From an uncultured Gammaproteobacteria bacterium (lineage in GTDB: Bacteria; Patescibacteriota; Patescibacteriia; UBA1558; 2-01-FULL-52-15): a DNA stretch of 64,000 nucleotides. Shown here piece after piece: positions 25,963 through 59,286 of this stretch. The position numbers and the translations under genes are program-made. How positions within the stretch are numbered: the first letter of the stretch is position 1; every line of letters begins with the position of its first letter. The stretch covers positions 316,659-380,658 of the forward strand of contig CAYOCJ010000002.1 of the NCBI GenBank assembly GCA_964402565.1, in the 5' to 3' direction. The notes under the pieces are model-generated. The model saw only the letters and a program-made list of their open reading frames with translations. It was not told the origin of the DNA and did not search any database.

Positions 25963-25991
25963 TTGACAAAATTGATGATTTAGTCTATGAT
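25963..25991 (+). promoter_or_regulatory. sigma70 promoter (TTGACA-17-TATGAT) at the entry to the large GC-rich island
   Basis: ttgaca at 25963-25968, a 17-nt spacer, tatgat at 25986-25991. A second TTGACA lies about 70 nt downstream. Confidence 0.55.
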
Positions 25992-26128: not shown

Positions 26129-26446
26129 GTGTCAAACGTAGAGAGTGTTTTCGATCTCGTAGTAGCGCTTGTCATAGACTTCGACGTCGGCCATAATGGG
26201 CCGTTCGCGATCTGCCGAGTAGTCAACATCGAAGATTTTCCCAATGCACTACCGGTCGATACTTCGGTCACGTTTCATCTTCGCTATTGGAAGAATGATG
26301 CGCCATTGACTGGAGGATCGCACGTTTTGCTGGGCAACTTGTCCAGCAAGCGTAAGGGATGGCGAGCTTTCGATGCTCGCATGTTCCGGCCTTCGAGTCC
26401 TCAACAAGCAACCAGCAACGAGCAGCAAATCAAAAGGGAGAACTGA
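26129..26446 (+). CDS. hypothetical protein (island gene A)
   Basis: RBS ggaaggagatactg-ATG. The stop overlaps the next start in TGAcATG. Confidence 0.55.
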   Translation: MSNVESVFDLVVALVIDFDVGHNGPFAICRVVNIEDFPNALPVDTSVTFHLRYWKNDAPLTGGSHVLLGNLSSKRKGWRAFDARMFRPSSPQQATSNEQQIKREN

Positions 26447-26447
26447 C

Positions 26448-27872
26448 ATGCCGACCAGTCAGCCGCAAGGCGGTAGCACGATCGACATCCTCGACCAGTT
26501 GGAGCGCGACACCAGTTCCTCGCTCTCGAAGATCCAGCAGCGCACCGAAGGACCGACCATGGACCAGAAGCTCGAAGAGCTCCAGGCCGAGATGGATCGG
26601 GCTGTTCAGATCAAGGACGACAAGGAGCGCGACATCCGGGTGCGCGTGTTGACCACGACGCTCGAGAAGTTGCGTGAAGACGCGGCGCAGGAGGAGCAGG
26701 ATCTGGCCCAGGCCGTTCTCGGCCTGAATGCCAAGATCGAATCCCTCGGCGACGAGTACAAGGTGCTGAACGTTCAGGCTCCGGAAGAGCTGGCTGTCAT
26801 CACCCGCGCGCAGGCTCGGCTCACCGAAGCGAAGAATGCCGTTCCGAATCGCGAGATCGAACTGGCGAATATCGCCGAGATGTGGTTCGAGTTCCGGCGC
26901 CGCAAGGCCCGGGCCAAGCTCGAGGAGCAGATCAAGCTGGCGGAGGCGCAAGTCCAGAACGCGGAGCAGGGCTTGGTGGAGGCTCAGGCCGAATCCAAGC
27001 GTATGCAGCGTCAGCGCCTGATGAAGGCGAAGATGGATGCGTCCATCCAGGAGTTCACGGTCCGCGTCGCGAAGACCATCGAGATCATGCAGCGGCGCGT
27101 GGAAGTCGTGAAGGGCGAGATCGCCTCGGTGAAGGCGCGGAAGGCTCAGAGCTTCGACATCAAGGAGCGGGCCGCCAAAGCCGTCGAGGACCTCGACGCG
27201 AAGCTGAACCAGGCGGAAGCCCAGCTGAAGGACGAGGAAGAAAAACTCACGAGTCTCGCCAACGGGACCGAAGAGTACGCGAAGCAGACCGAGATCATCT
27301 CGAACAAGCGAGCCGAGGTCGAAGAGCTTCGCGGGCGGCGCAATACCGCGCACGTGCTCTTCCAGAGCAAGGAGCGGTTCGCCATCGAACTCGAGACGCA
27401 CGAGCGGACGCAGATGAAGCTCCGCGACAACCTGACCATGTGGATCACCTTGCTCCGTAGCGATACGGAAGCGCGCGTGACCACGTTCAAGTCCCGCCTC
27501 GAGGCCATGAAGGCCATGTCCGACCAGGACGTTGCCAAGGACCTCGACAAGCTGGGCGTCGCCATGGACCGGAACAACGCCGAATACATGGCTCAGGCCG
27601 GTGCCGTTTCCGATCGACTCCGTGTCGACCGGATGGAACAACATCCGCAGATCGTCAAGAAGCTCATGGAGATCGCGGCCGCCCAGGCTCAGGCGCATCA
27701 GGTCATTCGCGAGCGCGAAGCCGAAGTGCTCAGGGTTTTCCGCGAGAAGTACGGCATCGACCCGATGTCGACTTCCTTCTTCACCTACGCGCACCACAAC
27801 GACGGCGTGACGAGCGGTGCCCCTTCGGGCAGCGCCGGCGAGCCGTCCAGTGCGGACGTGCTCGGTCAGTAA
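26448..27872 (+). CDS. long coiled-coil protein, 474 aa (island gene B)
   Basis: RBS aaaagggagaactgac-ATG. Almost entirely E/K/A/Q/R helical heptads. No TM and no nucleotide-binding motif. Confidence 0.7.
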   Translation: MPTSQPQGGSTIDILDQLERDTSSSLSKIQQRTEGPTMDQKLEELQAEMDRAVQIKDDKERDIRVRVLTTTLEKLREDAAQEEQDLAQAVLGLNAKIESLGDEYKVLNVQAPEELAVITRAQARLTEAKNAVPNREIELANIAEMWFEFRRRKARAKLEEQIKLAEAQVQNAEQGLVEAQAESKRMQRQRLMKAKMDASIQEFTVRVAKTIEIMQRRVEVVKGEIASVKARKAQSFDIKERAAKAVEDLDAKLNQAEAQLKDEEEKLTSLANGTEEYAKQTEIISNKRAEVEELRGRRNTAHVLFQSKERFAIELETHERTQMKLRDNLTMWITLLRSDTEARVTTFKSRLEAMKAMSDQDVAKDLDKLGVAMDRNNAEYMAQAGAVSDRLRVDRMEQHPQIVKKLMEIAAAQAQAHQVIREREAEVLRVFREKYGIDPMSTSFFTYAHHNDGVTSGAPSGSAGEPSSADVLGQ

Positions 27873-27947
27873 GTAGTCTGACCCAATGGCGGCGACCCTG
27901 AGAGAAATCGAAGGGTCGCCGCATACGACTCTTCTAAGGAGAGATCC

Positions 27948-29087
27948 ATGCCGGAAGATCAACTGAACCCTAGCGAGCCGGATATCGTGCTGCTCGCGAG
28001 TCAGGACGAATACGCCAAGTATTACAACTTGATGACGGTCGTATTGTCCCGGCTCGTCGCGTGGCATCGAAAACTGGCGAGCCAAGGGCAATACGAGGCA
28101 GGGGTCATCGAGCAATTCGTCGAGCGTCTGCTCTACACCATCCGCGTTCTGCGGATGAAGTACACGTACAGCGTCGAGCACGGACTCAAGGTCGATCTCA
28201 CTGACTCGGGTTTTCCCGCAGCCATGGAGATCATGCACCTGGAAACCGATCTCGCGCGAAAGGAAGAGGTCCTGAGGGCCCTTCCTCCGGCGTCGTTCTT
28301 GAAACTCAGCATGTTGGATACGCTCCTCAAGGAGCGGGTCGAACCGCGCGAGCTTCTGTGGCAGATGTCTCAACGTGCCTACATGACCATGCTGGATCCG
28401 GATAAAGTGTTTCTCACGTTCAGTCCTGGCAAGCTCGAACAGCGAGGCCAGGATGTGAATGAACGGCAATATGTGTTCTCGTGGGGCTGCTACGATTTCC
28501 AGAAAAGCAGACCCTACGTGCACGTCATGACGTTCACCCAAGACCGATCGAGCGACCCGCTGCATTTGGAAGGGCCGACCTATGCCCACTTCATGCAGGT
28601 GGTCAAGCACGAGGGTTCCCGCGCACCCGACCTGGCCATCCTCGCTGCGTCTATCGACGACGCTCTCGAGGATATTCATCCGAAGGTCATCAAGCGGGTG
28701 TGTATCGGACCCATGTTCTCACGCTCAGTGGTTCACGGTTCAGAGGTTACGACCGATCCGCTCTACCGCAGTTTGGCCGAACTTCTGTACCAACAGAGCA
28801 AGGCCGACGACGAGTTCCTCCTCGCCTTCAAGGAAGAGGTAGTGTTCTCGAGAGAGCAGCAGGTTACAAAAAAGCTGTTCGCGTCGTCCCGCGTCCGGGA
28901 GATCTTCCACATTCCCGTGGATGACCCCGAGTGTTACCAGAGCCGCGCTTCGGTCGTGCATCGAAGCGTCATTCTGTCGCATGCATTGCTGCAACATATC
29001 GACGGGCTTGGCGATTCTGCCCTGCCCGGCTTCGAGAAGTTCGGCAAGATCACGTATTCGGCAGACGGAGGACTCTATGGCGTCTAG
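27948..29087 (+). CDS. hypothetical protein, 379 aa (island gene C)
   Basis: RBS aaggagagatcc-ATG. Its stop overlaps the start of the AAA ATPase gene. Confidence 0.65.
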   Translation: MPEDQLNPSEPDIVLLASQDEYAKYYNLMTVVLSRLVAWHRKLASQGQYEAGVIEQFVERLLYTIRVLRMKYTYSVEHGLKVDLTDSGFPAAMEIMHLETDLARKEEVLRALPPASFLKLSMLDTLLKERVEPRELLWQMSQRAYMTMLDPDKVFLTFSPGKLEQRGQDVNERQYVFSWGCYDFQKSRPYVHVMTFTQDRSSDPLHLEGPTYAHFMQVVKHEGSRAPDLAILAASIDDALEDIHPKVIKRVCIGPMFSRSVVHGSEVTTDPLYRSLAELLYQQSKADDEFLLAFKEEVVFSREQQVTKKLFASSRVREIFHIPVDDPECYQSRASVVHRSVILSHALLQHIDGLGDSALPGFEKFGKITYSADGGLYGV

Positions 29088-31035
29088 CCAGTCCGGTGTA
29101 ACGATCGAGGAAGCCGATGTTCGGAAATTCCTCGACCGTGCGAACCCCCTGCTTGCTGCAGCGAAATGGCAGCCAAAGCAGGATCCGTTCGCGAAAAGCA
29201 AAGAGCAAGGAGCAGGCGGGTGGCGCGACTCTACAACGTTGCCGCTCGCTGAGCAGTCGATTTCGATCGTCTCCTTCACACGGAAGCTCGCCGATGATGC
29301 GCTTCTGCTGCCCGATGGCTTCAACCACGTGTTGGGCATCGTACGCAAAGGCTTGTGTCTCGGCATGCATCTGTGCCAGCAGTACACCAGATTCTCCGGC
29401 TTGGAGGAACTGGTGCGGCTGAACCAGCGCGGCGCGCTGACAGGCGAGCAGAAAACTCGCTTCAGCGAGATGCAGGTCACGGCAGCTGCTGTCGCTGCGT
29501 TTTCCTCAGCCTACTATGTGGTCTGGAGCCTTTCAGACTACAGAACGGATGAGACTTCAGGGGTCAATATCAAGCTCGACGGTTTACCCGAGCTTGCGCT
29601 CGTGAATCCGGTTTCCGCCTTCCAGTGCATGGTGTTCTATTACGCCGCGTATCTGGAGCGGAGCGGGCAAGTTGCGAGCGAGCTGGATTTCATCGCGATG
29701 ACGAACCTGTATTTCAAGGCCGTCATTGACGAGATCCAGCGGAAAGCAGAATCGTTCAGGCAGGCGGAATCCTTCACAGGCCAGACCTATCGTTTGGCCG
29801 GCAGCGAGTTCTCGATCAACGGGTTCGCGGCCGACCTCAAGGCAGGCAATGGCAGCGTGGAGTTCAACCGCGTCGACCTCGACGACATCGTCGGCAACCA
29901 AGACGCGAAGCACAAAGCGTTGCGGCTCGCCGAACGATTGATGTGCTACGACCTGGTGGCGCAGCGGAATCCCATGAGCGAACTCGGAGGCTTGGCCTTC
30001 GTTCGCATGGGCCACGGCGTGCCGGGTACGGGCAAGACGATGCAGATCTCTGCGACCGCTACCATGTTGTACGATTGGTGTACGGCACTCGGGATACCGT
30101 TCTTCTTCAATCCGATGCCGGATAACATCGTCTCAACGTTCCAGGGCGGTTCAGCAGAACGGGCTATCGCTTGGATGAAGCCCCTCTTCGATCCGAAGCG
30201 GATCATCTATGCGCCGGCCGATGACGCAGAGAATAACTACGAGGACCGGACACGGCAGGGAGTTTCCGCCGGCGTTCGAGAGGTCATCGGAGTCTTTCTG
30301 CGCCATACCGAGGGCGCCTACGCTATCAAGCGGGGCAACTCGGTGATCGAACTCTTCACGAATATCCCGGACCAGATCGATCCGGCCGTTCTTTCACGAG
30401 TCCTTGACCGGTTCGTGATCGGCGGTGCGCTCGAGTGGTACGACTTCGTGGACCAGGACTATCTCTGGTGGCGCAAGCTCAAGGCGGTAGATCCGACGTT
30501 CATCGACATGGAGGATCCGAAAGGATTCACCTATCTCGAGAAGCAGAAGGTGGTAGCGAGCCTGGCTGACGCTTACTCGGCTCAGACCCAGGAAGTGACA
30601 CCTTCGGTGAAGGAGCTCGATCGCATCATTGCGGAAGTCGAATCACAGTATCCGCGGCACGGCCATGAATTTTATGGCCGGCTGTTCGCGGCCTTCAAGA
30701 AAGCGTTCCCGGGGTTTTCCTCGAGGGACGTTCGAAATATCCAGACCCTCATCAGCGAGCGGATCCTGGACTTCGGGTTGCCAGCCGAATGGCTCAAGGA
30801 CCCGGAGATGTTCTATCGCAAGGACTACGCCACAAAGCTCGGGATGCTGAAGGAGCTCATGCGCGAGTCCATGCGCGGCTTGCATTTCGCCGAGGTGCGT
30901 TGGCAGGAGACCTATCGCTATCTCGTCCAGTTCCTGCGAATTCAGGAAACGGGCAGCGAGCGAGAGATCAAGAGAATGGCCGAGCACATTCGGCTGCAAG
31001 CCGAAGCGACAAGGCGAGTCAGTTCGCGATCGTAA
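29077..31035 (+). CDS. classical AAA-family ATPase with about 300-aa uncharacterised N-domain (island gene D)
   Basis: RBS ggaggactct-ATG overlapping the gene C stop. DIVGNQDAK, then Walker A GVPGTGKT, and a second region of homology ELFTNIPDQIDPAVLSRVLDRF. The Walker B is atypical (IIYAPADDAE). Confidence 0.8.
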   Translation: MASSQSGVTIEEADVRKFLDRANPLLAAAKWQPKQDPFAKSKEQGAGGWRDSTTLPLAEQSISIVSFTRKLADDALLLPDGFNHVLGIVRKGLCLGMHLCQQYTRFSGLEELVRLNQRGALTGEQKTRFSEMQVTAAAVAAFSSAYYVVWSLSDYRTDETSGVNIKLDGLPELALVNPVSAFQCMVFYYAAYLERSGQVASELDFIAMTNLYFKAVIDEIQRKAESFRQAESFTGQTYRLAGSEFSINGFAADLKAGNGSVEFNRVDLDDIVGNQDAKHKALRLAERLMCYDLVAQRNPMSELGGLAFVRMGHGVPGTGKTMQISATATMLYDWCTALGIPFFFNPMPDNIVSTFQGGSAERAIAWMKPLFDPKRIIYAPADDAENNYEDRTRQGVSAGVREVIGVFLRHTEGAYAIKRGNSVIELFTNIPDQIDPAVLSRVLDRFVIGGALEWYDFVDQDYLWWRKLKAVDPTFIDMEDPKGFTYLEKQKVVASLADAYSAQTQEVTPSVKELDRIIAEVESQYPRHGHEFYGRLFAAFKKAFPGFSSRDVRNIQTLISERILDFGLPAEWLKDPEMFYRKDYATKLGMLKELMRESMRGLHFAEVRWQETYRYLVQFLRIQETGSEREIKRMAEHIRLQAEATRRVSSRS

Positions 31036-31088
31036 CCAGGTAGCCAGAGCGGGGAAACTCGCTCTGGCGCCTATCCTAAGGAGTAGGA

Positions 31089-32354
31089 ATGCAGAAGCTC
31101 ATCGAAGCCGGCCTCATCGGAGATGGCTTGGTCACGGTCGATTCGCCAGCGATGGTGGATCGATACAACCAGGCGCTCGAGGAGAGCGGCGTATCGAGGA
31201 CACAGCTCACTGCGTTCACGATCGACGGCATCGGCTGGAGTCCGGAGGTGGCGACGGAATGCAATAACCGTTTCTACCTGTCGGTCGGTCTGCCGAATCA
31301 GGTCGGCATCATCTTGTCGCCTGATCAGGAAGGGAAACCGATCTACTTCCCTTTCAGAAGCTTCGATCGAGACCTGATGAGCATCTACTTCAAGCGGTTC
31401 GCGCAGGAGATCGCTGATGTGACGAGGCGATCACCGATCGTCCTCGACATCGACCAGGGCGTGACGGATTACGAAACGCCACTGGATCTCCTCCTGACAA
31501 ATCAGTTCGTTGTGCATTCCTCAGCCGGGAAGCTGGCAGAGGAGGCGCGAGTTCAGCAGGACATCGTCGGACGCTTCATGGCGGACGACGAAACCTGGTT
31601 CGACACCGCGATCCGCCAGCAACTGATCGACAGCGGCAAACAGCATGGCGATCTACGGTACCGCAAGGTAACGATTCCAGATATGCGCTATGACGACGTG
31701 CGGGACTTTTATACCCGTGCGTTCGGCGGCGCGTACCTGTTTCGGAGCCACGGCGGCCCCGAGATCCTCGTACTGGAAGATGCGAGCCTTGTCTCACAAA
31801 CGAAGCGTCGAGGCGTTGTCGTGTACACCACGACGTCTACCAAAGCGCTCGATCAACTCCGCGACTGCGGATTGATCGACATCGACCTCGCGTGGTATCG
31901 GGATCACCCCGAGCAACTGCAACATCTGTACGACAGTTTGGTCGGCGACTTCTTGTGTCGCGAACGGCCTGAGATGGTCCTGGACGATGTGCCGGCGACG
32001 CAGCGCAAGAAATTGCTGCTGTCGCTCAAGGCATCGGCGCCACCGGCTATCTTCGACCTCGAGCGGCTCATGAAGAAGCTCAAGAGCGATTCGCAAGCGC
32101 TGCCGACGGTGCTGTCGACAGATCTCCAGCATGTGCTGATGCATCCGGCTGCTACCGTGTTGAACGGCAGCAGGCGCGTCATCTGGCAGCTGCTGGCCGG
32201 TTATCAGCCGTGGAATGTTTCACGGCAGTATTTCTACAGACGGAACGAATTCGTGGAACAGATCGCCAACTGGCCCGAGCCGATGCAAAGCTGGGCCATC
32301 GAGCTGATCCAGCGGCGGTATCGTCGCGTCATGGATCAGCAAAAGGAGCAATGA
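31089..32354 (+). CDS. hypothetical protein, 421 aa (island gene E)
   Basis: RBS ctaaggagtaggaATG. No recognised domain. Confidence 0.65.
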   Translation: MQKLIEAGLIGDGLVTVDSPAMVDRYNQALEESGVSRTQLTAFTIDGIGWSPEVATECNNRFYLSVGLPNQVGIILSPDQEGKPIYFPFRSFDRDLMSIYFKRFAQEIADVTRRSPIVLDIDQGVTDYETPLDLLLTNQFVVHSSAGKLAEEARVQQDIVGRFMADDETWFDTAIRQQLIDSGKQHGDLRYRKVTIPDMRYDDVRDFYTRAFGGAYLFRSHGGPEILVLEDASLVSQTKRRGVVVYTTTSTKALDQLRDCGLIDIDLAWYRDHPEQLQHLYDSLVGDFLCRERPEMVLDDVPATQRKKLLLSLKASAPPAIFDLERLMKKLKSDSQALPTVLSTDLQHVLMHPAATVLNGSRRVIWQLLAGYQPWNVSRQYFYRRNEFVEQIANWPEPMQSWAIELIQRRYRRVMDQQKEQ

Positions 32355-32355
32355 C

Positions 32356-33000
32356 ATGCCGGCATTTGCGAGCTATCTCCTGTCCATGGTGATTCTCTAC
32401 TTCCTTTCCGGCGCCATCCTGTACAACCTGGATATCGCTTTCGGAGTCCCCGTCGTGACGTGGTGGTATAACCTCACGCACAAGAGCCCCTTGCCTGACG
32501 GCCAGGAGAAAGGTTTCATCTTTCGCCGGCCGACCAAGGTGAAGGGAGTATGGGCGGTTCTGATCTCGTCGGCGTTCAGCATCGCGGTGATGTACTACAG
32601 CCACTCAGTCAATATCGTCGTCGAGGTCTTCGCCTGGGCAGTCCAGGTTCCGTGCATGCTTTTCGGCATGCACATCCTGGGTCGTCCATTGGGAAACCTT
32701 TGGAGCAAGCGCGAGCATGTCTATCAGAAGCTCGACGCACTCGAGTCCGGCGAGACCACACTCAGCGCGGAAGCTCGCAGGATTGCGACTACCGTCGCCG
32801 GCAGAGCACGCGGTCTGAAGGACGAGCTGGCTGCGGCACCAAAGCCTCAGCCTGTGTCCGTTGAGCCTGCTCCGGTGCCGGTGGAGTCCGCGCCCGTCGT
32901 TGTGAACGACAGCACGGCTGCTCCCGAACCCCAGCCCGAAGAAGATCCGACGGCTGGGATGAAGAAGTTCAACGACAAGTACGGCATCAAGAGTCGTTGA
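32356..33000 (+). CDS. membrane protein with Pro-rich C-terminal tail (island gene F)
   Basis: TGAcATG coupling to gene E. 3-4 TM helices. PEPQPEE / PAPVPVESAPV low-complexity tail. Confidence 0.65.
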   Translation: MPAFASYLLSMVILYFLSGAILYNLDIAFGVPVVTWWYNLTHKSPLPDGQEKGFIFRRPTKVKGVWAVLISSAFSIAVMYYSHSVNIVVEVFAWAVQVPCMLFGMHILGRPLGNLWSKREHVYQKLDALESGETTLSAEARRIATTVAGRARGLKDELAAAPKPQPVSVEPAPVPVESAPVVVNDSTAAPEPQPEEDPTAGMKKFNDKYGIKSR

Positions 33001-33001
33001 C

Positions 33002-34624
33002 ATGGGCCCTTCACTTCAAGAGAAGCCTCGAGCGATCGAGGCAGAGAAAGACAACCACGGAGCGCTCTACTGGTTCGCCAGGCGAGTGCTCGGAGGAGTT
33101 GGTCGCTTCTACGGCCGTCACTGGTTCGCAGGAACGATCTTCCTCGTACTGTTTGTCGGAATCACGTTCTGGCTGCGGCCTCTCTACCAGCCCTATGTGC
33201 TGGGGGTCCGCAAGTTCAGCTTCCTGGTTCCGCTCTTCGCGCCGATCGCCTTCTTCCTTTCATGGGCGGTCCGCAAGCGCTCACTGCACTTCAAGATCCT
33301 GATCTGGGCGGTCATCATCGCCCTGATCGGCGGTGCCTGGAAGTGGGAGTCGGGCGCCTACCACTACTGCAAGCTCTACCTCAGATATCGGGATCTCCCG
33401 AAGACAGAGCTCACGCAGTTGCCGCTTACTGATCATGAGCGGATCCAGCCACTGCACTCGGTGTATACGCAGGCGCTGGAGAACATGACGGATGTCGAAC
33501 GGCCGACACGGTTCGACTTCGTCCGGATCGGTGACGAGTATCACTTCACTGCCGCGATCGAGCCAGCAAAGTCGATCAGGCAGACTGTGGGATCGATCAC
33601 CGAACTCCTGTCAGTTCCTGGTACGGTTCCGGCGGCGAATTTCGCTCCCGAGAGTCGTATCAAAGTTCATTTCAATGAAGGCGAGACGATGTACTTGTCG
33701 CACAATATCTTCACTTCCGTGCGGCGAGCATTCAGCCCCTCGCTCTTCTGGTCCTATGAGCCATCCGATGTCTTCCGCGTCCAGAACGACAAGGGAGAAT
33801 GGGTACAAGTCGTATCGCTCATCCACTGGACCGGCATCCTGTTCCCGCGTCCGGAGTTCGGCGGAGTGTATATCGTGCCGCAAGCTGATAGCTCGCCGGC
33901 CGAAGCGCTTCGCAGGACGCTCTGGGGCAGCGGGACATGGGTTCCACCGGAACGTCTGGCTGAGCATCCGTTTCTCATCGGCCAGAACACGGTCGCGTTC
34001 GACATCAGTCGTTTCGCGGCAGAAAGCTTCCGGTTCCAATACGGCTTCTGGGCTCCTGCTCCCGGGTATCACTACAACGACATTCGCATTCCGGAGTTAC
34101 CCGGTGATCAGAACGCCATGCCGTATACCTGTTTCTTCCGTCTCAGCGAGGCGAAGGGGCAAGACAAGCTCTATCAGTACTTCGCCATGGAGCCTTACGA
34201 CGCTGACAAGCAGGGTCTGACGCTTTCGATCTTTTACCCTGCTGACGGCATCGGCTCTGTCTACTACTATCGGCACAATGAACGCGGAGGAGTCGTATCC
34301 GGCGTCTCGGCCATCGCCGCTAAGGTGATGGAATCCAAGAAGCAATACGACTGGACGCGACATCGGCCGGTGGAACACCTGCCCTACATCAAGGACATGG
34401 CTGGAGGCCGACGCTTCTTCTGGAAAACGACGGTCATCACGATGAAAGACCCGATCGTCGACGCCAAGGGGAACAAGGACTCTACCCAGTTCTACATCGC
34501 GGGCACGGTGCCGGAGATCGTCTTCACCGACACCGTCACGAAAATGCCTACTTGGGTCGACTCGCATCACCCGGAAACGTGGGCACAAGACCTCGAAACC
34601 CAGATGAAAGATATCTGGAAGTAG
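33002..34624 (+). CDS. membrane-anchored protein with large extracytoplasmic domain, 540 aa (island gene G)
   Basis: TGAcATG coupling to gene F. Three N-terminal TM segments, then about 420 aa rich in aromatic residues. Confidence 0.65.
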   Translation: MGPSLQEKPRAIEAEKDNHGALYWFARRVLGGVGRFYGRHWFAGTIFLVLFVGITFWLRPLYQPYVLGVRKFSFLVPLFAPIAFFLSWAVRKRSLHFKILIWAVIIALIGGAWKWESGAYHYCKLYLRYRDLPKTELTQLPLTDHERIQPLHSVYTQALENMTDVERPTRFDFVRIGDEYHFTAAIEPAKSIRQTVGSITELLSVPGTVPAANFAPESRIKVHFNEGETMYLSHNIFTSVRRAFSPSLFWSYEPSDVFRVQNDKGEWVQVVSLIHWTGILFPRPEFGGVYIVPQADSSPAEALRRTLWGSGTWVPPERLAEHPFLIGQNTVAFDISRFAAESFRFQYGFWAPAPGYHYNDIRIPELPGDQNAMPYTCFFRLSEAKGQDKLYQYFAMEPYDADKQGLTLSIFYPADGIGSVYYYRHNERGGVVSGVSAIAAKVMESKKQYDWTRHRPVEHLPYIKDMAGGRRFFWKTTVITMKDPIVDAKGNKDSTQFYIAGTVPEIVFTDTVTKMPTWVDSHHPETWAQDLETQMKDIWK

Positions 34625-34790
34625 AGGCACAATTCGCACCTTCAATAATAAGCGCATGAAGCGCGGCGGGATCCAAACTTGGGTCCCGCTTTTTCTTTTC
34701 CAGTACTTGACAAAATCTATAATTTACAGTACTCTATCAAGTTCACATTTAAACAGAAAATCGTCCTTTCCCAAGAAAGGGGAGTGCCAG

Positions 34791-36059
34791 ATGATCGAGT
34801 TTATCAGCAGATACGTATCGGTCCTGGGCCTCCCGCAAAGCTATGCCCAGGCGCTGACTCATGTCATCGCCGTTTTGTTCGTTGCGGCTTTGAGCTTCCT
34901 GTCCAATCTGGTCGCGAAACGGATCATCGTTCGGGTCATGAATTTCATTGTCAGCCGGACGAAGAACCAGTGGGACGACGTGCTCGCCAAGTGGAAAGTG
35001 TTCACCAGGCTCTCGCATCTCGTACCGGTTCTGGTGATCTGGTATCTCGCACCTCAGGCGATTCCGCCATCATCATTTCTCGAGTCGCTCATCGAGCGCG
35101 CTGTCGGCCTGTACGTCGTATGGGTAAGCGTTTCGATCATGTGGGCGGTTACCAATGCTGTCCGCGATGTATACGACCGCTATCCGATCTCGAAACGGAT
35201 CGGCATCACGAGCTTTATCCAGACGGCGAGGATCCTGCTGGTCATTCTGGCCAGCATCCTGTCGCTGTCGATCGCGCTCGCAAAGCCGTTCGGAGTTTTG
35301 ATCGGCGGCATCATCGCGTCCGCTGCGGTCTTCGCGCTGCTCTTGCGCGAACCGATCCAGAATTTCGGAGCCAGTCTGTGGATCGTCTCTCATCAACTCG
35401 TCCGCAAGGGCGAACGGATCGAGATCCAAAGCTGCCAGGTGGATGGCGAGGTCGTCGAGATCAGCCTTCACACCATCGTCGTTCGTCAGAATGACATGAC
35501 GCTGAAAGCGTTTCCTACCTACAAGCTCCTGAGCGAGGGCGTGAAGAACTGGCGCGGCATCACTTCAGCCGGAGGACGGCGGATCCAGCGTTCGATCTGG
35601 ATCGACATGGGAACCATCAAATTCCTCAGTGGCGACGCGCTTGTCCGCCTCGAACAGATCCCGCTCTTGAAACCGTATTTGGATACAGAGCTCGAAGCCT
35701 CGATGCACAGATCGGAGAAAGGAGTCGCGCCGGCTCAACCGTTCGTACATGGTTTTGCCCTGACGAACACGAGCCTGTTCCGTATCTACGTCGACCTGTA
35801 CCTGCGCCAACATCCCGGCATTCATCAAGTGCATACGATTCTGGTGCGCCAGCTGCAGCCGAAAGAATGCGGCTTGCCCATCGAGATCTATGCGGCCACG
35901 AATACGACCGACTGGCCGGAGCACGAGCGCATTCAGGCGGAGATCTTCGATCATCTGCTTGCGGCGCTTCCGTACTTCGAGCTCAGGGTGTACCAGGGAA
36001 TCTCGGGTGCGGATGTGGCGCGTGCCGCACTTGCTTCTGCCGAGATAGAGCGGAAATAG
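34791..36059 (+). CDS. mechanosensitive ion channel, MscS family (island gene H)
   Basis: RBS aaaggggagtgccag-ATG. MscS pore helix plus beta-domain signature (FGVLIGGIIASAAVFALLLREPIQNFGASLWIV...GERIEI...GEVVEISLHTIVVRQNDMTLKAFPTYKLLSEGVKNW). Confidence 0.85.
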   Translation: MIEFISRYVSVLGLPQSYAQALTHVIAVLFVAALSFLSNLVAKRIIVRVMNFIVSRTKNQWDDVLAKWKVFTRLSHLVPVLVIWYLAPQAIPPSSFLESLIERAVGLYVVWVSVSIMWAVTNAVRDVYDRYPISKRIGITSFIQTARILLVILASILSLSIALAKPFGVLIGGIIASAAVFALLLREPIQNFGASLWIVSHQLVRKGERIEIQSCQVDGEVVEISLHTIVVRQNDMTLKAFPTYKLLSEGVKNWRGITSAGGRRIQRSIWIDMGTIKFLSGDALVRLEQIPLLKPYLDTELEASMHRSEKGVAPAQPFVHGFALTNTSLFRIYVDLYLRQHPGIHQVHTILVRQLQPKECGLPIEIYAATNTTDWPEHERIQAEIFDHLLAALPYFELRVYQGISGADVARAALASAEIERK

Positions 36060-36068
36060 GAGACAGTC

Positions 36069-36311
36069 ATGCTCATGTTCTGCGGCATTTTCTGCTTCAG
36101 CATCGTGGTCATCGGATACTTCGCGTGGCGCTGGAAAGAGCCCGCATGGAATATCCCGGTAGCAGCGCTGCTCGTTGCACTCGGCGTTGAGTTCGGGATC
36201 TGGCTCGATAGCAAGAGCTCGATCCTGTTCTTGGTCTTCGCTGCACTCTGCATCGCTGGCGGCTTCTGGTGCCTCAAGCCTCAAATCCGCCCGCCGACCA
36301 CCCCGCGTTAA
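36069..36311 (+). CDS. small 2-TM membrane protein (island gene I)
   Basis: RBS ggagacagtc-ATG. 80 aa. Confidence 0.5.
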   Translation: MLMFCGIFCFSIVVIGYFAWRWKEPAWNIPVAALLVALGVEFGIWLDSKSSILFLVFAALCIAGGFWCLKPQIRPPTTPR

Positions 36312-36366
36312 CGATCAAAGCCGCCTGGGAGTACAGAAACCTTTCACCTGCCTCAAGGAGGGCACA

Positions 36367-36726
36367 ATGACCGATCCGAATGAACGCAGACAGAAGATGA
36401 AGGACGATCTCGCGAGCCTCTTCGGCGGAGCCAAAGCCGAGCTCAAGCACTTCGTCGACAAGGCGGAGGGGCACATCGACCGGGTGGTCGATGGAGCCAG
36501 GGAGCTTCACGAGGACTTCCACGCCGATCCGGAGGTCAAGCGCTTCAAGCGTAGGTTTAAATCCGGCCTGGCGAGTCTGGGCAAGAAGTTGGTGCACAAG
36601 CACGGCACCAAGGCGGAGAGCGAGGCTCTGCACAGGGCGAATCGCAAGAAGAAGGTGAAGGAAAGTCAGACGCCTCCGTCGGAACCCCCGGCGTCGCCTC
36701 AGACGCCGCCCGAGTCCGGCAGCTAG
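36367..36726 (+). CDS. small basic Lys-rich protein with Pro-rich tail (island gene J)
   Basis: RBS caaggagggcaca-ATG. 119 aa. The ORF-track N-terminal extension has no RBS. Confidence 0.5.
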   Translation: MTDPNERRQKMKDDLASLFGGAKAELKHFVDKAEGHIDRVVDGARELHEDFHADPEVKRFKRRFKSGLASLGKKLVHKHGTKAESEALHRANRKKKVKESQTPPSEPPASPQTPPESGS

Positions 36727-36976
36727 ACTCATCGTTCATTGCATCAATCGATCCGCGAGGATCGCGTCATCCTGAAATGGATGGGAACCCGCTGGTACGC
36801 CAGTCGATAAGGGTTCCTTTTTATTTTTAATACCATTGACTTTTTTAACTCTTTTTGGTACTTTTCGCTGTCTTCTTTTGTCCATTAACATCGTGTTTTG
36901 AGAAACAACTGAAAGGGGGTGTTACAGTTAATTTCGGCGCCGGTATGGTAGTTTTTCCACGAGCGGAGAAAAAGAT

Positions 36977-37234
36977 GTGACAAGAGCAGATACTCCTACT
37001 GAAGCGCGCGTCCATGACGTGATTAACGGTAAGCACGGTTTTTTTGCTGTAACAGTAGATGAATCCGGCAAGATCGAAGGCTCGATCACGGTCTCGCTTG
37101 AAGAGAAAGACAATGTCTGGCTCGAAGCAAGGCATCCAAAGCGAGGTGAAATACTCCTGCTGGAGGACATCACCACAAAGCCTGCCGGATGGCGGGCTGG
37201 TCAGGCACGGTTCCTTCGTCCGACTGATCGGTAG
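36977..37234 (+). CDS. small hypothetical protein, GTG start, in a lower-GC patch inside the island (gene K)
   Basis: ggagaaaaagat-GTG. 85 aa. Preceded by the CATTGACTTTT...TTTTTGGTAC motif. Confidence 0.4.
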   Translation: MTRADTPTEARVHDVINGKHGFFAVTVDESGKIEGSITVSLEEKDNVWLEARHPKRGEILLLEDITTKPAGWRAGQARFLRPTDR

Positions 37235-37298
37235 TTCCCACATGCTATTCCGGCATGTGGACAGCAACTAGCATCGAGAAAACAGAAGGAGTTGGATC

Positions 37299-38090
37299 TT
37301 GGACGACAACAACGAAATCCGAAGGCAGAAGTTGGCCGCCATCTTCAGATGGGGGCTGGGTCTTGTCGGTGCTGCGATCATCTCGCCTGTCGTTTTTTTG
37401 GCGGTGAAAGGCATCGTCGGGCTTGCGCTGGCAGTCGGCATCGGTTTCGCGGTCATTCAACTCGCGCCGGTCGTTGCGATGAAGCTCGCCAATTGGCGTA
37501 TGAAGCTCATCATCGACGAAGCCGAGAAGAATCCGATCGAGACCCTGCGCAACGAAACGCTCGACGCTGCCAAAGCTATCGACAGCAAAGACCAAGAGCT
37601 CGAAGACTGGGATACCGAGCTTCGGACATACGACGACGAACTCGTCAGCATCAAGCGGGATTATCCGGATGAGGCTGCCTCTTTCGAGCGCGTCAGCGAG
37701 GAGATGCATACTGGTCTGACGCAGGCTCGTGAGGAACAACAGCGTGCCCGTTGGGATCTCGAAGAAGCGAAGCGAACCGTCGACAAGATGGAGCGTCTCT
37801 ACAAAATGGCGCTCGCCGCACAACGGGTCAAGAGCTTCTCGAAGACCGCAGAAGAGGCGGTCATGGCTGACATCAGGCAGAAGGCAGCCATGGATTCTGT
37901 GCGCACCAATCTGAACCGGTCGCTTTCGCAGCTCAACACTGCGATGGCGAAACGGGCTGCCCGCCCCGCATTGACGGTTGCAGGAATGGGCCGGCAAGCG
38001 CTTGGCGCTGGTCGTCCCGCTACGATCGACATGTCCACTGATGCGAATCCCGCGAAGGTTCCGGTTCCGCGCGTTCGCGATAAGGAGTGA
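37299..38090 (+). CDS. membrane-anchored coiled-coil protein (island gene L), TTG start
   Basis: gaaggagttggatc-TTG. Two N-terminal TM helices, then a charged helical region. Confidence 0.55.
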   Translation: MDDNNEIRRQKLAAIFRWGLGLVGAAIISPVVFLAVKGIVGLALAVGIGFAVIQLAPVVAMKLANWRMKLIIDEAEKNPIETLRNETLDAAKAIDSKDQELEDWDTELRTYDDELVSIKRDYPDEAASFERVSEEMHTGLTQAREEQQRARWDLEEAKRTVDKMERLYKMALAAQRVKSFSKTAEEAVMADIRQKAAMDSVRTNLNRSLSQLNTAMAKRAARPALTVAGMGRQALGAGRPATIDMSTDANPAKVPVPRVRDKE

Positions 38091-38092
38091 AC

Positions 38093-38227
38093 GTGGGAAA
38101 CAAAAAGTATCGCATCGGCATCACGTTGCTCCTGCTCCTCATCCTGTTCCTCTGTTACGTCTACATCCAGAGCAATTCGCAGTCGTCCGATCCTCAGCAA
38201 GACGAACAAGGCATTCGGCTCCACTGA
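38093..38227 (+). CDS. possible 44-aa hydrophobic micro-protein (not in the ORF track)
   Basis: GTG 5 nt after the AAGGAG that overlaps the stop of gene L. Reads VGNKKYRIGITLLLLLILFLCYVYIQ..., a single TM. Confidence 0.3.
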   Translation: MGNKKYRIGITLLLLLILFLCYVYIQSNSQSSDPQQDEQGIRLH

Positions 38228-38258
38228 GCTGATCACACTGAACAAGGAGACCAACGAA

Positions 38259-39203
38259 ATGAACCTGAGCAAGTCCATCAATCGCATCATGTTCGCCCTG
38301 GCGCTGGTCTGCGTCTCGACGCAGCTCTTCGCGCAGACCCCGTTCAAGGTTGCGTCCAACTCGTCGAGCGGCACGTACGACAGGATGCTCGGCGAGATCA
38401 TTGCCGTCTGCAACAGCGACGAGCTGGAGATCGTGAGCGCTGACGTGAAGGGCGGGGCTGTCGGCAACCTGGACGCGCTCTACAACAACAAGGTGAACGC
38501 CGCGTTCATGCATTCCGACGTGTTCATGTCGAGTGCACAGGCCGACCCGAATTACAACCGATTCCAGACCTTGGTCGCGCTCTATCCCGAGCCGATCCAC
38601 GTGTTGGCGCTGAAGGTATCGAAGACCACGGAGAACGGCGCGCTTCACTGGGGGAAGGCTGCCTTCGGCAGTCTTGCGGAGACCAAGGGCTACAAGGTCG
38701 GTGCAGCAGGTGGCGGTGTCGTGACCGCCAGAATCTTGCAAGGGCAAGGTGAAGGCGGTTTCAGCGTCGTGCCATACAATGACGGCAATGAAGTCATTGC
38801 CGCGCTCGACAAGGGCGAGATCGCTGCGGCGATTTTCGTTGGAGCAGCTCCGCTGCCGAACCTGGAAAAACTGGATAAGCAGAAGTACAAGCTCATCCCG
38901 ATCGGCGCAACGATCGAGAACAAGGTCCAGGGCGTGTATCGTCCGGCCTCGGTGAATTACCCGGGCCTGACAAGCGGCCCGCTGCACACACTCGCGCCCA
39001 TGGCCACGCTCATGACCAAGAAGTACACCACGCCGGCCATGATCGACATGCAGCGCAAGTTCAGGGATTGCTTCAATACCCACCTGGGTGAGCTGAAGGA
39101 CGGCCATTCGCCGAACTGGGAATTCGTCGAGGCCGGCGATCACGGCGTACTCACCTGGTACGAGATCCCGCCTGCAGGTCCTGCGGCTCCCAAGAAGAAG
39201 TAA
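38259..39203 (+). CDS. periplasmic solute-binding protein (TAXI-TRAP / PBP2-like fold), secreted (island gene M)
   Basis: Signal peptide MNLSKSINRIMFALALVCVSTQLFAQ. G-rich binding-protein pattern (GAAGGGVVTARILQG...). No transporter partner nearby. Confidence 0.5.
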   Translation: MNLSKSINRIMFALALVCVSTQLFAQTPFKVASNSSSGTYDRMLGEIIAVCNSDELEIVSADVKGGAVGNLDALYNNKVNAAFMHSDVFMSSAQADPNYNRFQTLVALYPEPIHVLALKVSKTTENGALHWGKAAFGSLAETKGYKVGAAGGGVVTARILQGQGEGGFSVVPYNDGNEVIAALDKGEIAAAIFVGAAPLPNLEKLDKQKYKLIPIGATIENKVQGVYRPASVNYPGLTSGPLHTLAPMATLMTKKYTTPAMIDMQRKFRDCFNTHLGELKDGHSPNWEFVEAGDHGVLTWYEIPPAGPAAPKKK

Positions 39204-39257
39204 GTTCCGCGTTTTCTCAATAACACTGTCTAAAAAGGACTGAGCAGACCTGCTGCT

Positions 39258-39294
39258 CCCCGCCATGTCGCATGACCTGGCGGGTTCTTTTTTT
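39258..39294 (+). terminator. rho-independent terminator closing the island operon
   Basis: cccgcca...tggcggg followed by ttctttttttac. Confidence 0.7.
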
Positions 39295-39357
39295 ACTTGG
39301 CTAATTTCATTCCTTACTATATACTAGTCGCGTGAACCTAAGTATTAAAAGGTAACT

Positions 39358-46574: not shown

Positions 46575-46823
46575 GCGATGTTCTCCTTGTGATAGGAATG
46601 GATGTGCCCGAATACCCAAGCAATTTGGGTTCCAGGTTAACAGCGCATAATATAGCTTTTCTAGGAAAAGTCAACTCTATATGAATCCTAACTTCACTGT
46701 TGTATTCAATAAACATTGACTTTTCGGTACTTTTTTGGTACGGTCGAAAGTCTTTTTGATGTTCATTGACAACCGTCTGTGCGGTTGTCTCCAACCATTC
46801 TGGACACCCTGAGGAGGGAGATA

Positions 46824-49250
46824 ATGCGTACAGCAAAGGTACTAAAGCCTTGGCGACATCAACGCCAAGCACAGCTTGCCATCACAGTAGCACGTGAGTC
46901 AGGCAAGCACGCCGGCCTCATGGTCATGGCAACGGGCTTAGGAAAAAATCTCACGGCAGCACTCGAGTATGAGAAGTTCAGAAGGTCAATGCTCCGTCGT
47001 GGCAAGCGAAGCCGATTGCTCTTCCTTGCACACCAGTCCCACATGCTCGATCAGGCGCGAGAAACTTACGAAATGCGCTTAGGTCGCAGGATCAGCTGCG
47101 GGATGTTTAACGATGTCTTCAAGGAGACAAAGGCAGACGCAGTTTTCGCAACATTCCAGAGCATGGATAAAGTGCTTTTCGGAAAGAAAGGAAAAAAGCG
47201 TCGACCCTTCGGAAGACATGGATTCGACTACGTCATCATCGATGAGTCGCATCACAGCCATGCACACACCTACCGACGGGTCATTCGCTACTTCAAGCCG
47301 CGTTTCACGTTGGCTATGACCGCGACACCTGACAGAGCAGATCTTCAGGACATACGCGATCTCTACGGCCCTGAGGTGTACTCACTCCCTCTCGAGGAAG
47401 GTCTTGCGCGAGGTTTGCTCGCGCCTGTGGACTATCGCCTCGTAACGGATGGATTGCACAAGCTAAGCATTCTCGACACACCGATCGGAAGATTGAGCGT
47501 CAAACGTTTGAACAAGACACTCTTTATTCCAAGGCGTGACGCCGAGATTGCAAAGATCATCCTCCAGCATGCACGGCGTCAGCCTGATGCACGTATGATG
47601 ATCTTCTGTCCTTCGATCAAGTATTGCACCCGTCTCGAACGACACTTACCGAATGCGGTTGCAATTCACTCGAGACTCACTGACAAGGAACAAGCCGATC
47701 GTCAGGCGAAGTTTCGGACAGGCGACTACACAACCGTTTTGACGGTGGACAAGTTCAACGAAGGGATTGATATCCCTGAGGCGAACATCATCGTCTTCCT
47801 TCGCTCCACAGCATCACGCAGGATTTTCCTGCAACAGCTCGGCCGCGGGCTTCGTAAGCTTCGTGGCAAGAGAAACGTCCTCGTCCTAGATTTCGCTGCA
47901 AACTGTGAGCGACTTCAAATGGTGAATACTCTCTGGCGTTCTGTCGACAAAATTAAGCGACAAAGCGCTGGGAAAACCAAGGACCGAGCTGTTTCAGTGG
48001 ACATCGGAAAGGTGAAGTTCTCGCATGTCGCGCAACGGATTCTCGATGTCTTGGGTCGCATCCAAGAAGGGTATACTCGAGAAGTGATCATTGCTCAGCT
48101 CAGAAGCCTTGGAAAACACCTCGATAGGACCCCAATGACAGACGATATCCGAGAGGCGTCTAAAAAAGGTTTGTGCGCAAATCCGACTACGATCTTACGA
48201 CATTTCGGCACCCTGCATGCTGCACTCAAGGCTGCTGGGTTCAGGCCAACACGAGGTTGGGGTGCGACCGAAGATGAGGTCAAGCTCCAAATCAAAGCAG
48301 TCGCTAAAGCACTTGGGCATACACCCACGATCGAAGAGTTGCGAGCCGCTTGGAGGAAAGGCGACATTGTTCACGAAGGCGTCATTCGACGCATCTTCGG
48401 AACTGTCACCGCTGCTTTCGAAGCTGTGGGCCTTGTTACTCGCAAGCCTAAGCACTACACCACAAGCGAGATCAAGAAACAGCTCAAGGAGATTCAAAGA
48501 ACAACTGGAAAAGCACCAACAAGAGCGGAAATAACGAATCGTCACGCAGCCGGTAAAGGTCCGAGTCTTCACATCGTGATCAAGCGCTTCGGCTCTTTCT
48601 CGAAAGCTCTTCTTGCGATAGGCACCCTCGCGACTAACATGATAAAGCCGGTCAAGGGGGGGAAAGCCCATCGTAAAGGCGAGGCCAGCAACAAGTTTGT
48701 GCTTGGCTGCCTCAAACGACTCGAGCGGAGCCTTGGTAGAATCCCTTCGAGAAAGGACGTTGATGTTGCTGCGCGAAAGGGCTTGTGTCTGAGTAGCTCT
48801 ACCTACGCTAAGCGATTCGGGTCTCTTACAGCGGCAAAAAAAGCTGCTGGGATCGAGATTGTTGTTGAGGTGAAGCGAACACGAAAACAACACATTCGCG
48901 ATTTGAAGCGACTCGCAAAGAAACTGGGTAGAACACCTTTCGTAGAGGATGTAAAAGCTGCCTACACGAGACACGAGTGTGGCAGCACATCCATGCTGTA
49001 TAAAGTCTTCGGGTCATTCAACAATGCGCTTGAAGAGGCTGGCCTCACCCCAAACCGAATCCACGAGTACACAGATCAAAGGCTCATCCATTCACTGCAG
49101 GAGCTTGGTCGCAAACTGGGGAGGCCACCGTATAGCATCGATGTAAACCGAGCAAGCAAAGAAAGCGGAGCCTTCCCGGGGCTAGGGCCATTCCTGAAAG
49201 CGTTCGGAACCTTCAGAAAAGCACGGGAGGCGGCGGGCTTCAAGGCCTGA
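46824..49250 (+). CDS. SF2 helicase (ResIII/DEAD-like: motif I GLGKN, motif II DESHH) with C-terminal array of about six homing-endonuclease-associated repeats
   Basis: RBS gaggagggagata-ATG. VMATGLGKN, VIIDESHHSHA, MTATPDR, and a helicase C-domain (QQLGRGLR). The C-terminal roughly 420 aa is made of about 50-aa repeats of the form L..LG+.PT..E....+GL......++FGS...AL..AG. Confidence 0.8.
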   Translation: MRTAKVLKPWRHQRQAQLAITVARESGKHAGLMVMATGLGKNLTAALEYEKFRRSMLRRGKRSRLLFLAHQSHMLDQARETYEMRLGRRISCGMFNDVFKETKADAVFATFQSMDKVLFGKKGKKRRPFGRHGFDYVIIDESHHSHAHTYRRVIRYFKPRFTLAMTATPDRADLQDIRDLYGPEVYSLPLEEGLARGLLAPVDYRLVTDGLHKLSILDTPIGRLSVKRLNKTLFIPRRDAEIAKIILQHARRQPDARMMIFCPSIKYCTRLERHLPNAVAIHSRLTDKEQADRQAKFRTGDYTTVLTVDKFNEGIDIPEANIIVFLRSTASRRIFLQQLGRGLRKLRGKRNVLVLDFAANCERLQMVNTLWRSVDKIKRQSAGKTKDRAVSVDIGKVKFSHVAQRILDVLGRIQEGYTREVIIAQLRSLGKHLDRTPMTDDIREASKKGLCANPTTILRHFGTLHAALKAAGFRPTRGWGATEDEVKLQIKAVAKALGHTPTIEELRAAWRKGDIVHEGVIRRIFGTVTAAFEAVGLVTRKPKHYTTSEIKKQLKEIQRTTGKAPTRAEITNRHAAGKGPSLHIVIKRFGSFSKALLAIGTLATNMIKPVKGGKAHRKGEASNKFVLGCLKRLERSLGRIPSRKDVDVAARKGLCLSSSTYAKRFGSLTAAKKAAGIEIVVEVKRTRKQHIRDLKRLAKKLGRTPFVEDVKAAYTRHECGSTSMLYKVFGSFNNALEEAGLTPNRIHEYTDQRLIHSLQELGRKLGRPPYSIDVNRASKESGAFPGLGPFLKAFGTFRKAREAAGFKA

Positions 49251-59257: not shown

Positions 59258-59286
59258 TTGACAATGTTGCCTGAAAAGTGTATAAG
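59258..59286 (+). promoter_or_regulatory. sigma70 promoter (TTGACA-17-TATAAG) for the PspA-like gene
   Basis: ttgaca at 59258-59263, tataag at 59281-59286. Confidence 0.5.

Follow-up and report, generated by a model that had tools for sequence, protein, structure and literature searches.

A discrete family of classical-type AAA ATPases encoded in a conserved six-gene cassette of Patescibacteria and other bacteria

The 64,000-nucleotide stretch of Patescibacteriota DNA analysed here (contig CAYOCJ010000002.1, hereafter the window) carries six co-directional genes, A-C-D-E-F-G, the third of which, gene D, encodes an AAA ATPase. Profile and sequence searches set this protein apart as a member of a discrete AAA family of the classical type, and the six genes form an operon-like cassette, which recurs in distant phyla. 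Taken alone, the statements on the identity of D and on the cassette are very probably correct. The sequence comparisons show ATPase D to be a new variant, with sharp limits, of a well-known type of AAA protein; the six-protein system itself may be something new.

In the cell, classical AAA ATPases serve as the motors that unfold proteins and take assemblies apart. The well-understood bacterial representatives are few: FtsH, ARC and some Cdc48-like proteins. The D family is an additional bacterial classical AAA family, very strongly conserved and accompanied by a fixed set of partners.

Gene D: family, active site and domain structure

The longest open reading frame in the gene D frame extends from 28921 to 31035. 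An independent gene call and all homologues place the start at the ATG at 29077, which is preceded, 5 nt upstream, by the Shine-Dalgarno sequence GGAGGA. This ATG overlaps the end of gene C (27948-29087; stop codon TAG at 29085-29087) by 11 nt, as noticed in a preliminary description of the window made from the sequence alone. The AAA reading frame proposed there proved to be intact, and the peptides quoted from it, GVPGTGKT, IIYAPADDAE and FTNIPDQIDPAVLSRVLDRF, are all present in the translation. More than 1,700 full-length homologues, 42-72% identical, were found; gene D is a real coding gene, far above chance level.

The preliminary description held that D contains a classical AAA module and not a generic P-loop, and this was confirmed. 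The only Pfam match of the protein is PF00004, with 27.8 bits for the whole sequence and 30 bits for the core (cut-off 21.2). An AF2 model of D was compared with solved structures using Foldseek. The nearest folds were classical AAA proteins, not members of other AAA+ clades: AFG3L2, Cdc48, Msp1, FIGNL1, p97 and Vps4 were all matched with E-values of about 1e-7, no subfamily standing out, and FtsHi and YME1 were also among the best matches. The fold searches were run with whole models of D, in which the AAA module dominates the matches.

Within the classical type, D stands apart from the clades searched. No match was obtained with phmmer against the PDB sequences. The profile of the D family matched Rpt4 best in the PDB (E = 0.0035), followed by Vps4 (0.018) and spastin (0.12). 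None of the NCBIfam models for FtsH, ARC, PAN, CDC48 and CdvC recognized D, except for 9.7 bits with the CDC48 model TIGR01243, the cut-off of which is 802. A second AAA ATPase of the window, an ARC/Mpa-like protein encoded at 55899-57752 on the reverse strand, served as positive control: it scored 356.8 bits on the ARC model TIGR03689, which is below the cut-off of 505, and 120 bits on PF00004, and it has a match to the proteasomal-ATPase OB domain. Searching 1.84 billion representative proteins with the D family profile retrieved only 619 clusters at E ≤1e-3, and 163 at E ≤1e-30. So small a number indicates that the D family stands by itself and does not lie at the edge of one of the large AAA families. 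Thus the NCBIfam, PDB and profile searches gave no sign of nesting in FtsH or in another housekeeping clade, an outcome that would have spoken against the preliminary description.

Four assignments to known families were considered and rejected. D is not an FtsH: it has no transmembrane (TM) segment by hydropathy, no Peptidase_M41 domain and no TIGR01241 match. ARC/Mpa was discarded on the missing TIGR03689 match and on the lack of a coiled-coil/OB N-domain, and Cdc48/p97/VAT on the single AAA module and the low TIGR01243 score. Vps4/CdvC was dismissed because MIT, Vps4_C and CdvC models do not match D, and the partner protein A is not detectably related to ESCRT-III or PspA.

The register of the active site was established by aligning D with the ARC-like ATPase of the window (BLASTP and hhalign) and the family profile with Rpt4. 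The ARC-like ATPase aligned with residues 262 to 440 of D at 28% identity (hhalign probability 96%). Residue conservation was counted among 101 full-length representatives of the family, divergent subfamilies included. The Walker A motif of D fits the GxxGxGK[ST] pattern. In the Walker B region the sequence IIYAPADD departs from the hhhhDE pattern, which ends in the catalytic glutamate: the segment A-P-A-D-D-A-E was aligned with I-F-I-D-E-A-E of the ARC-like ATPase. Since the register was the same with the ARC-like ATPase and with Rpt4, Asp382 is assigned as the Walker B aspartate, and Asp383 occupies the position of the catalytic glutamate. Asp382 is conserved in 99 of the 101 representatives. 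At position 383 there is Asp in 95, Glu in five and Gln in one, and at position 385 Glu in 68 and Asp in 32, and the family signature can be written as D-D-[AG]-E.

The preliminary description called this motif degenerate. The conservation of both aspartates, and the alignment of DDAE with DEAE residue by residue, do not bear this out. The alignments identify the Walker B motif of D as a conserved Glu-to-Asp variant (D-D-x-[ED]) in an otherwise intact active site, not as a product of decay. Rather than inactivating the site, the D-D motif probably makes hydrolysis slow or regulated, and it may make it dependent on partners.

The alignments also gave counterparts, for pore loop 1 a candidate one, of the other elements of a threading AAA core. 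In the pore-loop-1-like motif, F355-Q-G was aligned with W-V-G of the ARC-like ATPase. The residue at position 355 is aromatic in 87 of the 101 representatives; the aromatic residue and the glycine are conserved, and the middle residue is Gln where the classical pattern has a hydrophobic residue. The RTRQGVSAGV segment was aligned with the pore-loop-2 segment of the ARC-like protein. F-T-N of D was aligned with A-T-N of the comparator at sensor 1, where Asn429 is invariant (101/101). The second region of homology (SRH) follows with its two arginines: Arg441 is present in 100 representatives, and position 445, followed by Phe in D, is occupied by Arg in 77 of them and by Lys in a further 17. 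The SRH claimed in the preliminary description is therefore present, with the difference that the spacing of the arginines (R441-x3-R445) is one residue wider than in the ARC-like ATPase (R-D-G-R). The large subdomain of the AAA module is the best conserved part of the protein, its mean pairwise identity between phyla being 70%, as compared with 41% for the N-domain and 46% for the C-terminal part.

The AF2 model, built from 30 homologues, had a mean pLDDT of 84 and also covered the regions outside the core. In the prediction the N-domain comprises four long helices preceded by a small alpha/beta unit, with pLDDT mostly between 75 and 95, residues 41-55 excepted. It did not match any Pfam or NCBIfam family, which agrees with its earlier characterization as an uncharacterised domain; its length is about 262 residues, not 300. 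Even the divergent homologues from Vibrio, about 28% identical with D in an alignment covering residues 3-645, have kept this domain.

The C-terminal extension of about 200 residues noted previously turned out to be an ordinary AAA lid for about half of its length. In the model, an insertion of about 75 residues splits the lid, and a 48-residue terminal helix (30886-31032) comes after it. The whole region from residue 454 to 652 gave no family match. The lid contains the motif FSSRDVRNIQ (30715-30744), which is invariant in the form F-[ST]-S-R-D-[VL]-R-N-I-Q, and its Arg550 is present in 101/101 representatives. This motif presumably is the counterpart of the classical lid motif, which reads FSGADLANL in FtsH. 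Classical AAA proteins lack a sensor-2 arginine in the lid helix; Arg550 presumably adjoins the position of sensor 2 in the FtsH and ClpX motifs and may or may not act as one.

The A-C-D-E-F-G cassette

The cassette spans 26448-34624 of the window. A scan of one genome per species for D relatives gave no fewer than 535 species; the locus counts given here refer to the best 80 loci. Membership in the cassette was determined by tblastn with the proteins of the window and, independently, by clustering all open reading frames of the flanks. Exactly six families recurred, in 79, 74, 71, 69, 69 and 62 of the loci, all co-directional and in the order A-C-D-E-F-G. A seventh family recurring across phyla was not found in the flanks of the 80 loci. 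The arrangement in which a D-type ATPase gene is followed by a DUF6638 gene and preceded by C- and A-type genes was present in the window and in 69-79 of the 80 loci. The linkage of A, C and E to D is obligate, that of F and G near-obligate.

The genes are packed as in an operon, overlapping or abutting. The distances C-D, D-E, E-F and F-G are mostly below 10 nt or negative. C and D overlap in 19 of 76 loci, in many of them by 8-14 nt, with a median gap of 3.5 nt; the tight C-D spacing seen in the window is thus widespread. D and E overlap in 27 of 77 loci, and the median gaps are 5 nt for E-F and 3 nt for F-G. The gap between E and G was at least 501 nt in every locus that has both, which indicates that an F-type gene is always present between them. 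In the window, Shine-Dalgarno-like sequences precede A (GGGAG before the ATG at 26448), C, D, E and F, and a weaker one precedes G.

The preliminary description regarded C, D and E as a unit whose co-occurrence deserved testing. C and E indeed lie beside D in almost every locus, but the unit is larger and comprises six genes, including those of a coiled-coil protein and of two predicted membrane proteins. The coordinates of the genes, of the motifs of D and of two signals are listed in Table 1.

Table 1. Features of the cassette and of gene D in the window
Feature	Position	Strand	Basis or remark
Promoter-like site TTGACA-17-TATGAT, 11/12	25963..25991	+	Consensus scan
Gene A, 474-aa soluble coiled-coil protein	26448..27872	+	Present and co-directional in 71/80 loci
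Gene C, 379-aa soluble protein of no recognised family	27948..29087	+	69-78 loci
Gene D, AAA ATPase, 652 aa	29077..31035	+	Open reading frame, homologues, Pfam PF00004, AF2 model
D N-domain, aa 1-262, small alpha/beta unit, then four long helices	29077..29862	+	AF2
Walker A, GVPGTGKT	30016..30039	+	K320 in 101/101; aligned with Walker A of ARC-like ATPase
Pore-loop-1-like motif, STFQGG	30133..30150	+	S-T-F-Q-G aligned with T-R-W-V-G of ARC-like ATPase
Walker B region, IIYAPADDAE (D382, D383, E385)	30202..30231	+	Aligned with DEAE of ARC-like ATPase and DE of Rpt4
Pore-loop-2 region, RTRQGVSAGVRE	30247..30282	+	Nearly invariant in the main subfamily
Sensor 1 and SRH, FTNIPDQIDPAVLSRVLDRF (N429, R441, R445)	30355..30414	+	Conservation counts, alignment
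D lid and C-terminal region, aa 454-652	30436..31035	+	AF2 secondary structure
Gene E, 421-aa DUF6638 protein	31089..32354	+	PF20343, 118 bits; 74-77 loci
Gene F, 214 aa, three predicted TM helices and motif-tipped tail	32356..33000	+	Hydropathy; clustered in 62 loci
Gene G, 540 aa, three predicted N-terminal TM helices and beta-rich domain of ~400 aa	33002..34624	+	Hydropathy, model
Strong terminator-like hairpin (11-bp stem, 7 G-C pairs) and T-run	34665..34700 (hairpin 34665-34690)	+	Directly 3' of G

The promoter-like sites found in the scan did not exceed the number expected from shuffled sequence, and lend weak support to a promoter of the cassette. No Rfam family reached the gathering score in or around the cassette. 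The MscS-like gene 3' of G is not conserved with the cassette.

Among the partner proteins of the window, only E was assigned to a named family, DUF6638, and it has no sequence relative in the PDB. Beyond coiled-coil noise, protein A has no Pfam or PDB relative. Its C-terminal third is more specifically conserved, helical, and carries the motif [RK]YGID...SFF.Y. The acidic, low-complexity and presumably disordered tail of A ends in DDLL[SG] or VNDLLD in the Bacteroidota. We considered A as a member of the ESCRT-III/PspA/Snf7 group and rejected this possibility: a Pfam scan of 31 members of the A family did not yield a PspA or Snf7 match, and hhalign gave probabilities below 1% with the PspA of the window itself and with unverified copies of the E. 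coli PspA and yeast Snf7 sequences. Protein C gave no match in Pfam, NCBIfam, PADLOC or the PDB; its invariant residues are Y22, Y25, D83, S87, P90, W179, D237, P245, G254, H345 and Q349. Comparison of C, D and E with hhalign did not reveal a paralogous pair.

Hydropathy predicts F and G to be membrane proteins. The low-complexity tail of F, probably cytoplasmic as suggested by the distribution of charges, ends in one of two motifs according to clade (DPR..h..[FY]T.K or DWR.G...FL.K), and in DP......F..K in the window, whose F copy has no Pfam match. The large domain of G was modelled with confidence and has no relative among solved structures; it is likely to be extracytoplasmic. G matched no Pfam family and did not resemble a known channel.

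Distribution and genomic setting

The best 80 loci were mostly from Bacteroidota, with Patescibacteria, Verrucomicrobiota, Desulfobacterota (among them Desulfonema magnum), Trueperaceae and a few other groups also represented. Within the Patescibacteria, cassette loci were found in Moraniibacteriota and in Doudna-, Buchanan-, Lloyd- and Saccharibacteria, and within the Flavobacteriaceae the cassette is present in many related genera. In some Flavobacteriia loci (L058, 9800-13307; L052, 9925-10524) unrelated genes are inserted between D and E, the cassette being kept; judged by eye from their translations, the inserts resemble an amidohydrolase, a signal-peptidase-like and a Nudix-like protein. 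A Lloydbacteria locus (L030, 6598-12363) has D, F and G, a weak A-like match directly 5' of D, and no detected C or E.

A search of a plasmid collection revealed full-length D homologues, 25-28% identical, on megaplasmids of Vibrio and on replicons of Rhizobiaceae. Divergent cores of the type A'-C'-D'-E', with no F or G, are present on a megaplasmid of Vibrio vulnificus (L085, 6635-12183) and in Sinorhizobium meliloti (L086, 6531-15395). In the annotated records of both species, two hypothetical genes precede the D homologue, which is entered as 'ATP-binding protein'. The gene after it encodes a DUF6638 family protein in V. vulnificus and a hypothetical protein of 429 residues in S. meliloti. 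With tblastn, homologues of C and E were detected in the Vibrio and Sinorhizobium loci alike; in Sinorhizobium the search also picked up the conserved C-terminal region of A. In the S. meliloti locus, D' is followed by an inserted IS element and an inserted endonuclease gene, and E' by a DUF2333 protein with two TM helices. From the gene order we guess that SMc02733 is one of the S. meliloti cassette genes; this was not used as evidence. A ChvI-binding fragment was located inside SMc02733 (PMC3687685).

In Desulfonema magnum (L005) and Trueperaceae (L008/L010), A-C-D-E was present with neither F nor G within 6 kb 3' of E. As F and G are absent or non-adjacent in these various loci, the deepest invariant of the system is the soluble set A-C-D-E.

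In the window the cassette lies within a block of about 13 kb (26400-39300) with a GC content of 56-63%, flanked by DNA of 37-50% GC. This contrast suggests that the block was acquired laterally, although GC-rich DNA is found elsewhere in the window as well. The contig measures 513 kb, and the prolyl-tRNA synthetase encoded in the window is nearest to sequences from Patescibacteria, with about 60% identity to the named hits. There is no tRNA gene at the flanks of the block; integrase genes were not searched for. The block also holds the MscS-like gene (34791-36059), small open reading frames with TM segments, and a gene for a TM and coiled-coil protein (37299-38090). Two small open reading frames on the forward strand, 26129-26446 and 36977-37234, share the C-terminal motif GWRA..AR[FM][LF]RP. 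The former, which was not called as a gene, lies directly 5' of gene A, and in a Doudnabacteria locus (L013, 4230-4421) a homologue was found in the same position. The 85-residue copy is weakly similar to the last ~85 residues of Flavobacteriia gene G (E-values from 1e-4 to 1e-2 in a small database).

Two further regions of the window were noted. A gene of the PspA/IM30 family (59278-60018, forward strand; PF04012, 50 bits) lies 1.5 kb from the gene of the ARC-like ATPase, forming an AAA-PspA neighbourhood. The open reading frame 46779-49250 (forward strand) encodes a helicase-like protein of 823 residues with similarity to type I restriction R subunits and RadD (NF046051, 104 bits, below the cut-off).

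Proposed mechanism, rival explanations and comparison with known systems

We propose that D is the motor of a self-contained cassette, which remodels a coiled-coil assembly at the membrane. As a whole, we regard this statement as evenly poised between right and wrong; the step in which A is remodelled at the membrane is more tentative. In the proposed mechanism D would hydrolyse ATP, most likely in the form of a ring like that of its structural relatives, and thread a polypeptide through its central pore. The adaptors on the helical N-domain of D would be C and/or E, synthesized in step with it, and F and G would hold the complex on the cytoplasmic side of the membrane. The pore loops would then engage a flexible tail, most likely the acidic, motif-tipped C-terminus of A or else the tail of F, and ATP hydrolysis would lead to disassembly or remodelling of the coiled-coil assembly. 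In function, such a system would resemble the action of Vps4 on ESCRT-III or of NSF on SNAREs, but with unrelated partner proteins. In favour of the proposal are the AAA identity of D with its largely intact machinery, the recurrence of the cassette, the predicted TM helices of F and G, and the persistence of the divergent four-gene core. The tails of A and F also fit it, both being of low complexity and tipped by motifs conserved within clades.

Several points weigh against it. Ring formation, ATPase activity and contacts among the six proteins are predictions from sequence and model. Because A has no detectable relationship to ESCRT-III or PspA, the analogy with Vps4 would be functional only. 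The N-domain of D was compared with MIT and other known domains by way of profile models, and the topologies of F and G are predictions from hydropathy and charge. With Asp at the site of the catalytic Glu in nearly all representatives, hydrolysis could be weak or even lacking. The proteobacterial loci have no F or G, and in Desulfonema magnum and Trueperaceae these two genes do not adjoin the core, so that membrane association may not be universal.

The rival to which we give the most weight, although it is still unlikely, is that the cassette is a machine for translocation, secretion or membrane-protein extraction, comparable to Msp1/ATAD1, a protease-less FtsH or a secretion ATPase. D would pull a client across the membrane or extract it, with G facing the envelope and with A, C and E as chaperones or adaptors. 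The membrane unfoldases Msp1, AFG3L2 and the FtsH type are among the best structural matches of D, the cassette has two dedicated membrane proteins, with a large domain modelled and probably extracytoplasmic in G, and it occurs in monoderm-like Patescibacteria and in diderm phyla alike. Yet D itself lacks a TM anchor, G with just three TM helices is unlike the known channels, the neighbourhood of the cassette contains no conserved candidate for a secreted substrate or signal, and the proteobacterial core dispenses with F and G. Another rival is that D might bind ATP essentially without hydrolysing it, as a scaffold or switch that holds the partners in a nucleotide-dependent manner. Changes at the catalytic Glu of the AAA+ Walker B motif usually slow hydrolysis strongly, and D383 stands in place of this residue throughout most of the family. 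However, Asp retains the carboxylate, five representatives have the canonical D-E in the same scaffold, and the invariance or near-invariance of the sensor-1 Asn, the SRH arginines and the pore loops would be unexpected if hydrolysis and threading were dispensable; we judge this reading to be quite improbable.

We think about as little of the possibility that the cassette is a horizontally acquired anti-phage or conflict system, with D as its sensor or activator and the membrane proteins as its effectors. A patchy distribution over distant phyla, the 13-kb GC-rich island in a poorer region and the self-contained operon with membrane proteins would all fit such a system. On the other hand, A, C, D, E, F and G are all without a match in PADLOC-DB 2.0 at E-values up to 0.1, a search of 50,697 phage records gave no hit, and defence or mobility genes are not recurrent in the flanks of the 80 loci. 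The cassette is shared by many related genera of Flavobacteriaceae and, in Sinorhizobium, sits on the main replicon beside housekeeping genes, and the 70% identity of the AAA core across phyla is unusually high for conflict systems. The idea that D merely diverged from a housekeeping AAA protein, be it FtsH, ARC/Mpa, Cdc48 or Vps4/CdvC, is hardly credible: what D has in common with these is the classical AAA fold and the SRH, whereas the TIGR01243 score, the best PDB E-value and the few clusters retrieved by the family profile all speak against it, as does the lack of TM, protease, OB, MIT and second AAA domains.

It is possible, but doubtful, that the cassette represents an unrecognised class of ATP-driven membrane machine, either a counterpart of Vps4/ESCRT-III made of unrelated proteins or an apparatus for envelope remodelling or export. 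With similar reserve, such a machine might be old enough to be found in Patescibacteria, Bacteroidota, Verrucomicrobiota, Desulfobacterota and Deinococcota, with the soluble four-protein core also in Proteobacteria. Patescibacteria have genomes of only about 1 Mb. That about 8 kb are kept for the cassette in such a genome argues that it does something important. Some hosts, namely Sinorhizobium meliloti, Vibrio and Kordia algicida, can be grown in culture and manipulated genetically, so that direct testing is possible. We found no description of DUF6638 or of the cassette in the literature.

Comparison with known systems shows partial likeness to several of them. Like the membrane unfoldases Msp1/ATAD1 and FtsH, D could be a single AAA ring acting at a membrane on polypeptide tails; unlike them, it has no TM anchor or protease, and a link to the membrane would run via F and G. 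With ARC/Mpa it shares the status of a bacterial classical AAA protein and the similarity of the core described above, but it lacks the coiled-coil/OB N-domain and has other partner genes. NSF/Sec18 has two AAA modules where D has one, and A, C and E showed no detectable sequence relationship to any solved structure; the likeness to NSF would be one of analogy. The PspA/IM30 systems with AAA+ proteins resemble the cassette in that a helical, membrane-associated bacterial protein is encoded near an AAA ATPase. The PspA-linked contexts described by Ravi et al. (2024, PMC11237479) contain Snf7 or PspA, TPR-6TM and double-AAA proteins; these contexts differ from the cassette, and gene A does not belong to the PspA family. 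Bacterial Vps4-like and PspA-linked ATPases have also been reported in contexts other than this cassette (PMC10936438).

Vps4/CdvC with ESCRT-III also resembles the cassette in layout. In both, a single classical AAA module follows a helical N-domain, and a neighbouring helical or coiled-coil protein has an acidic, flexible C-terminal tail tipped by a short conserved motif; an action of D at a membrane is plausible. D differs from Vps4/CdvC in having no detected MIT, Vps4_C or CdvC match, in the D-D instead of D-E of Walker B, and in its 262-residue N-domain, lid insertion and long terminal helix, and its cassette has four more partner families (C, E, F and G), obligate or nearly so. According to a 2025 review (PMC7619361), a Vps4-like ATPase appears to be absent from bacteria. 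The cassette is a concrete candidate for a bacterial ATP-driven remodelling system analogous to Vps4.

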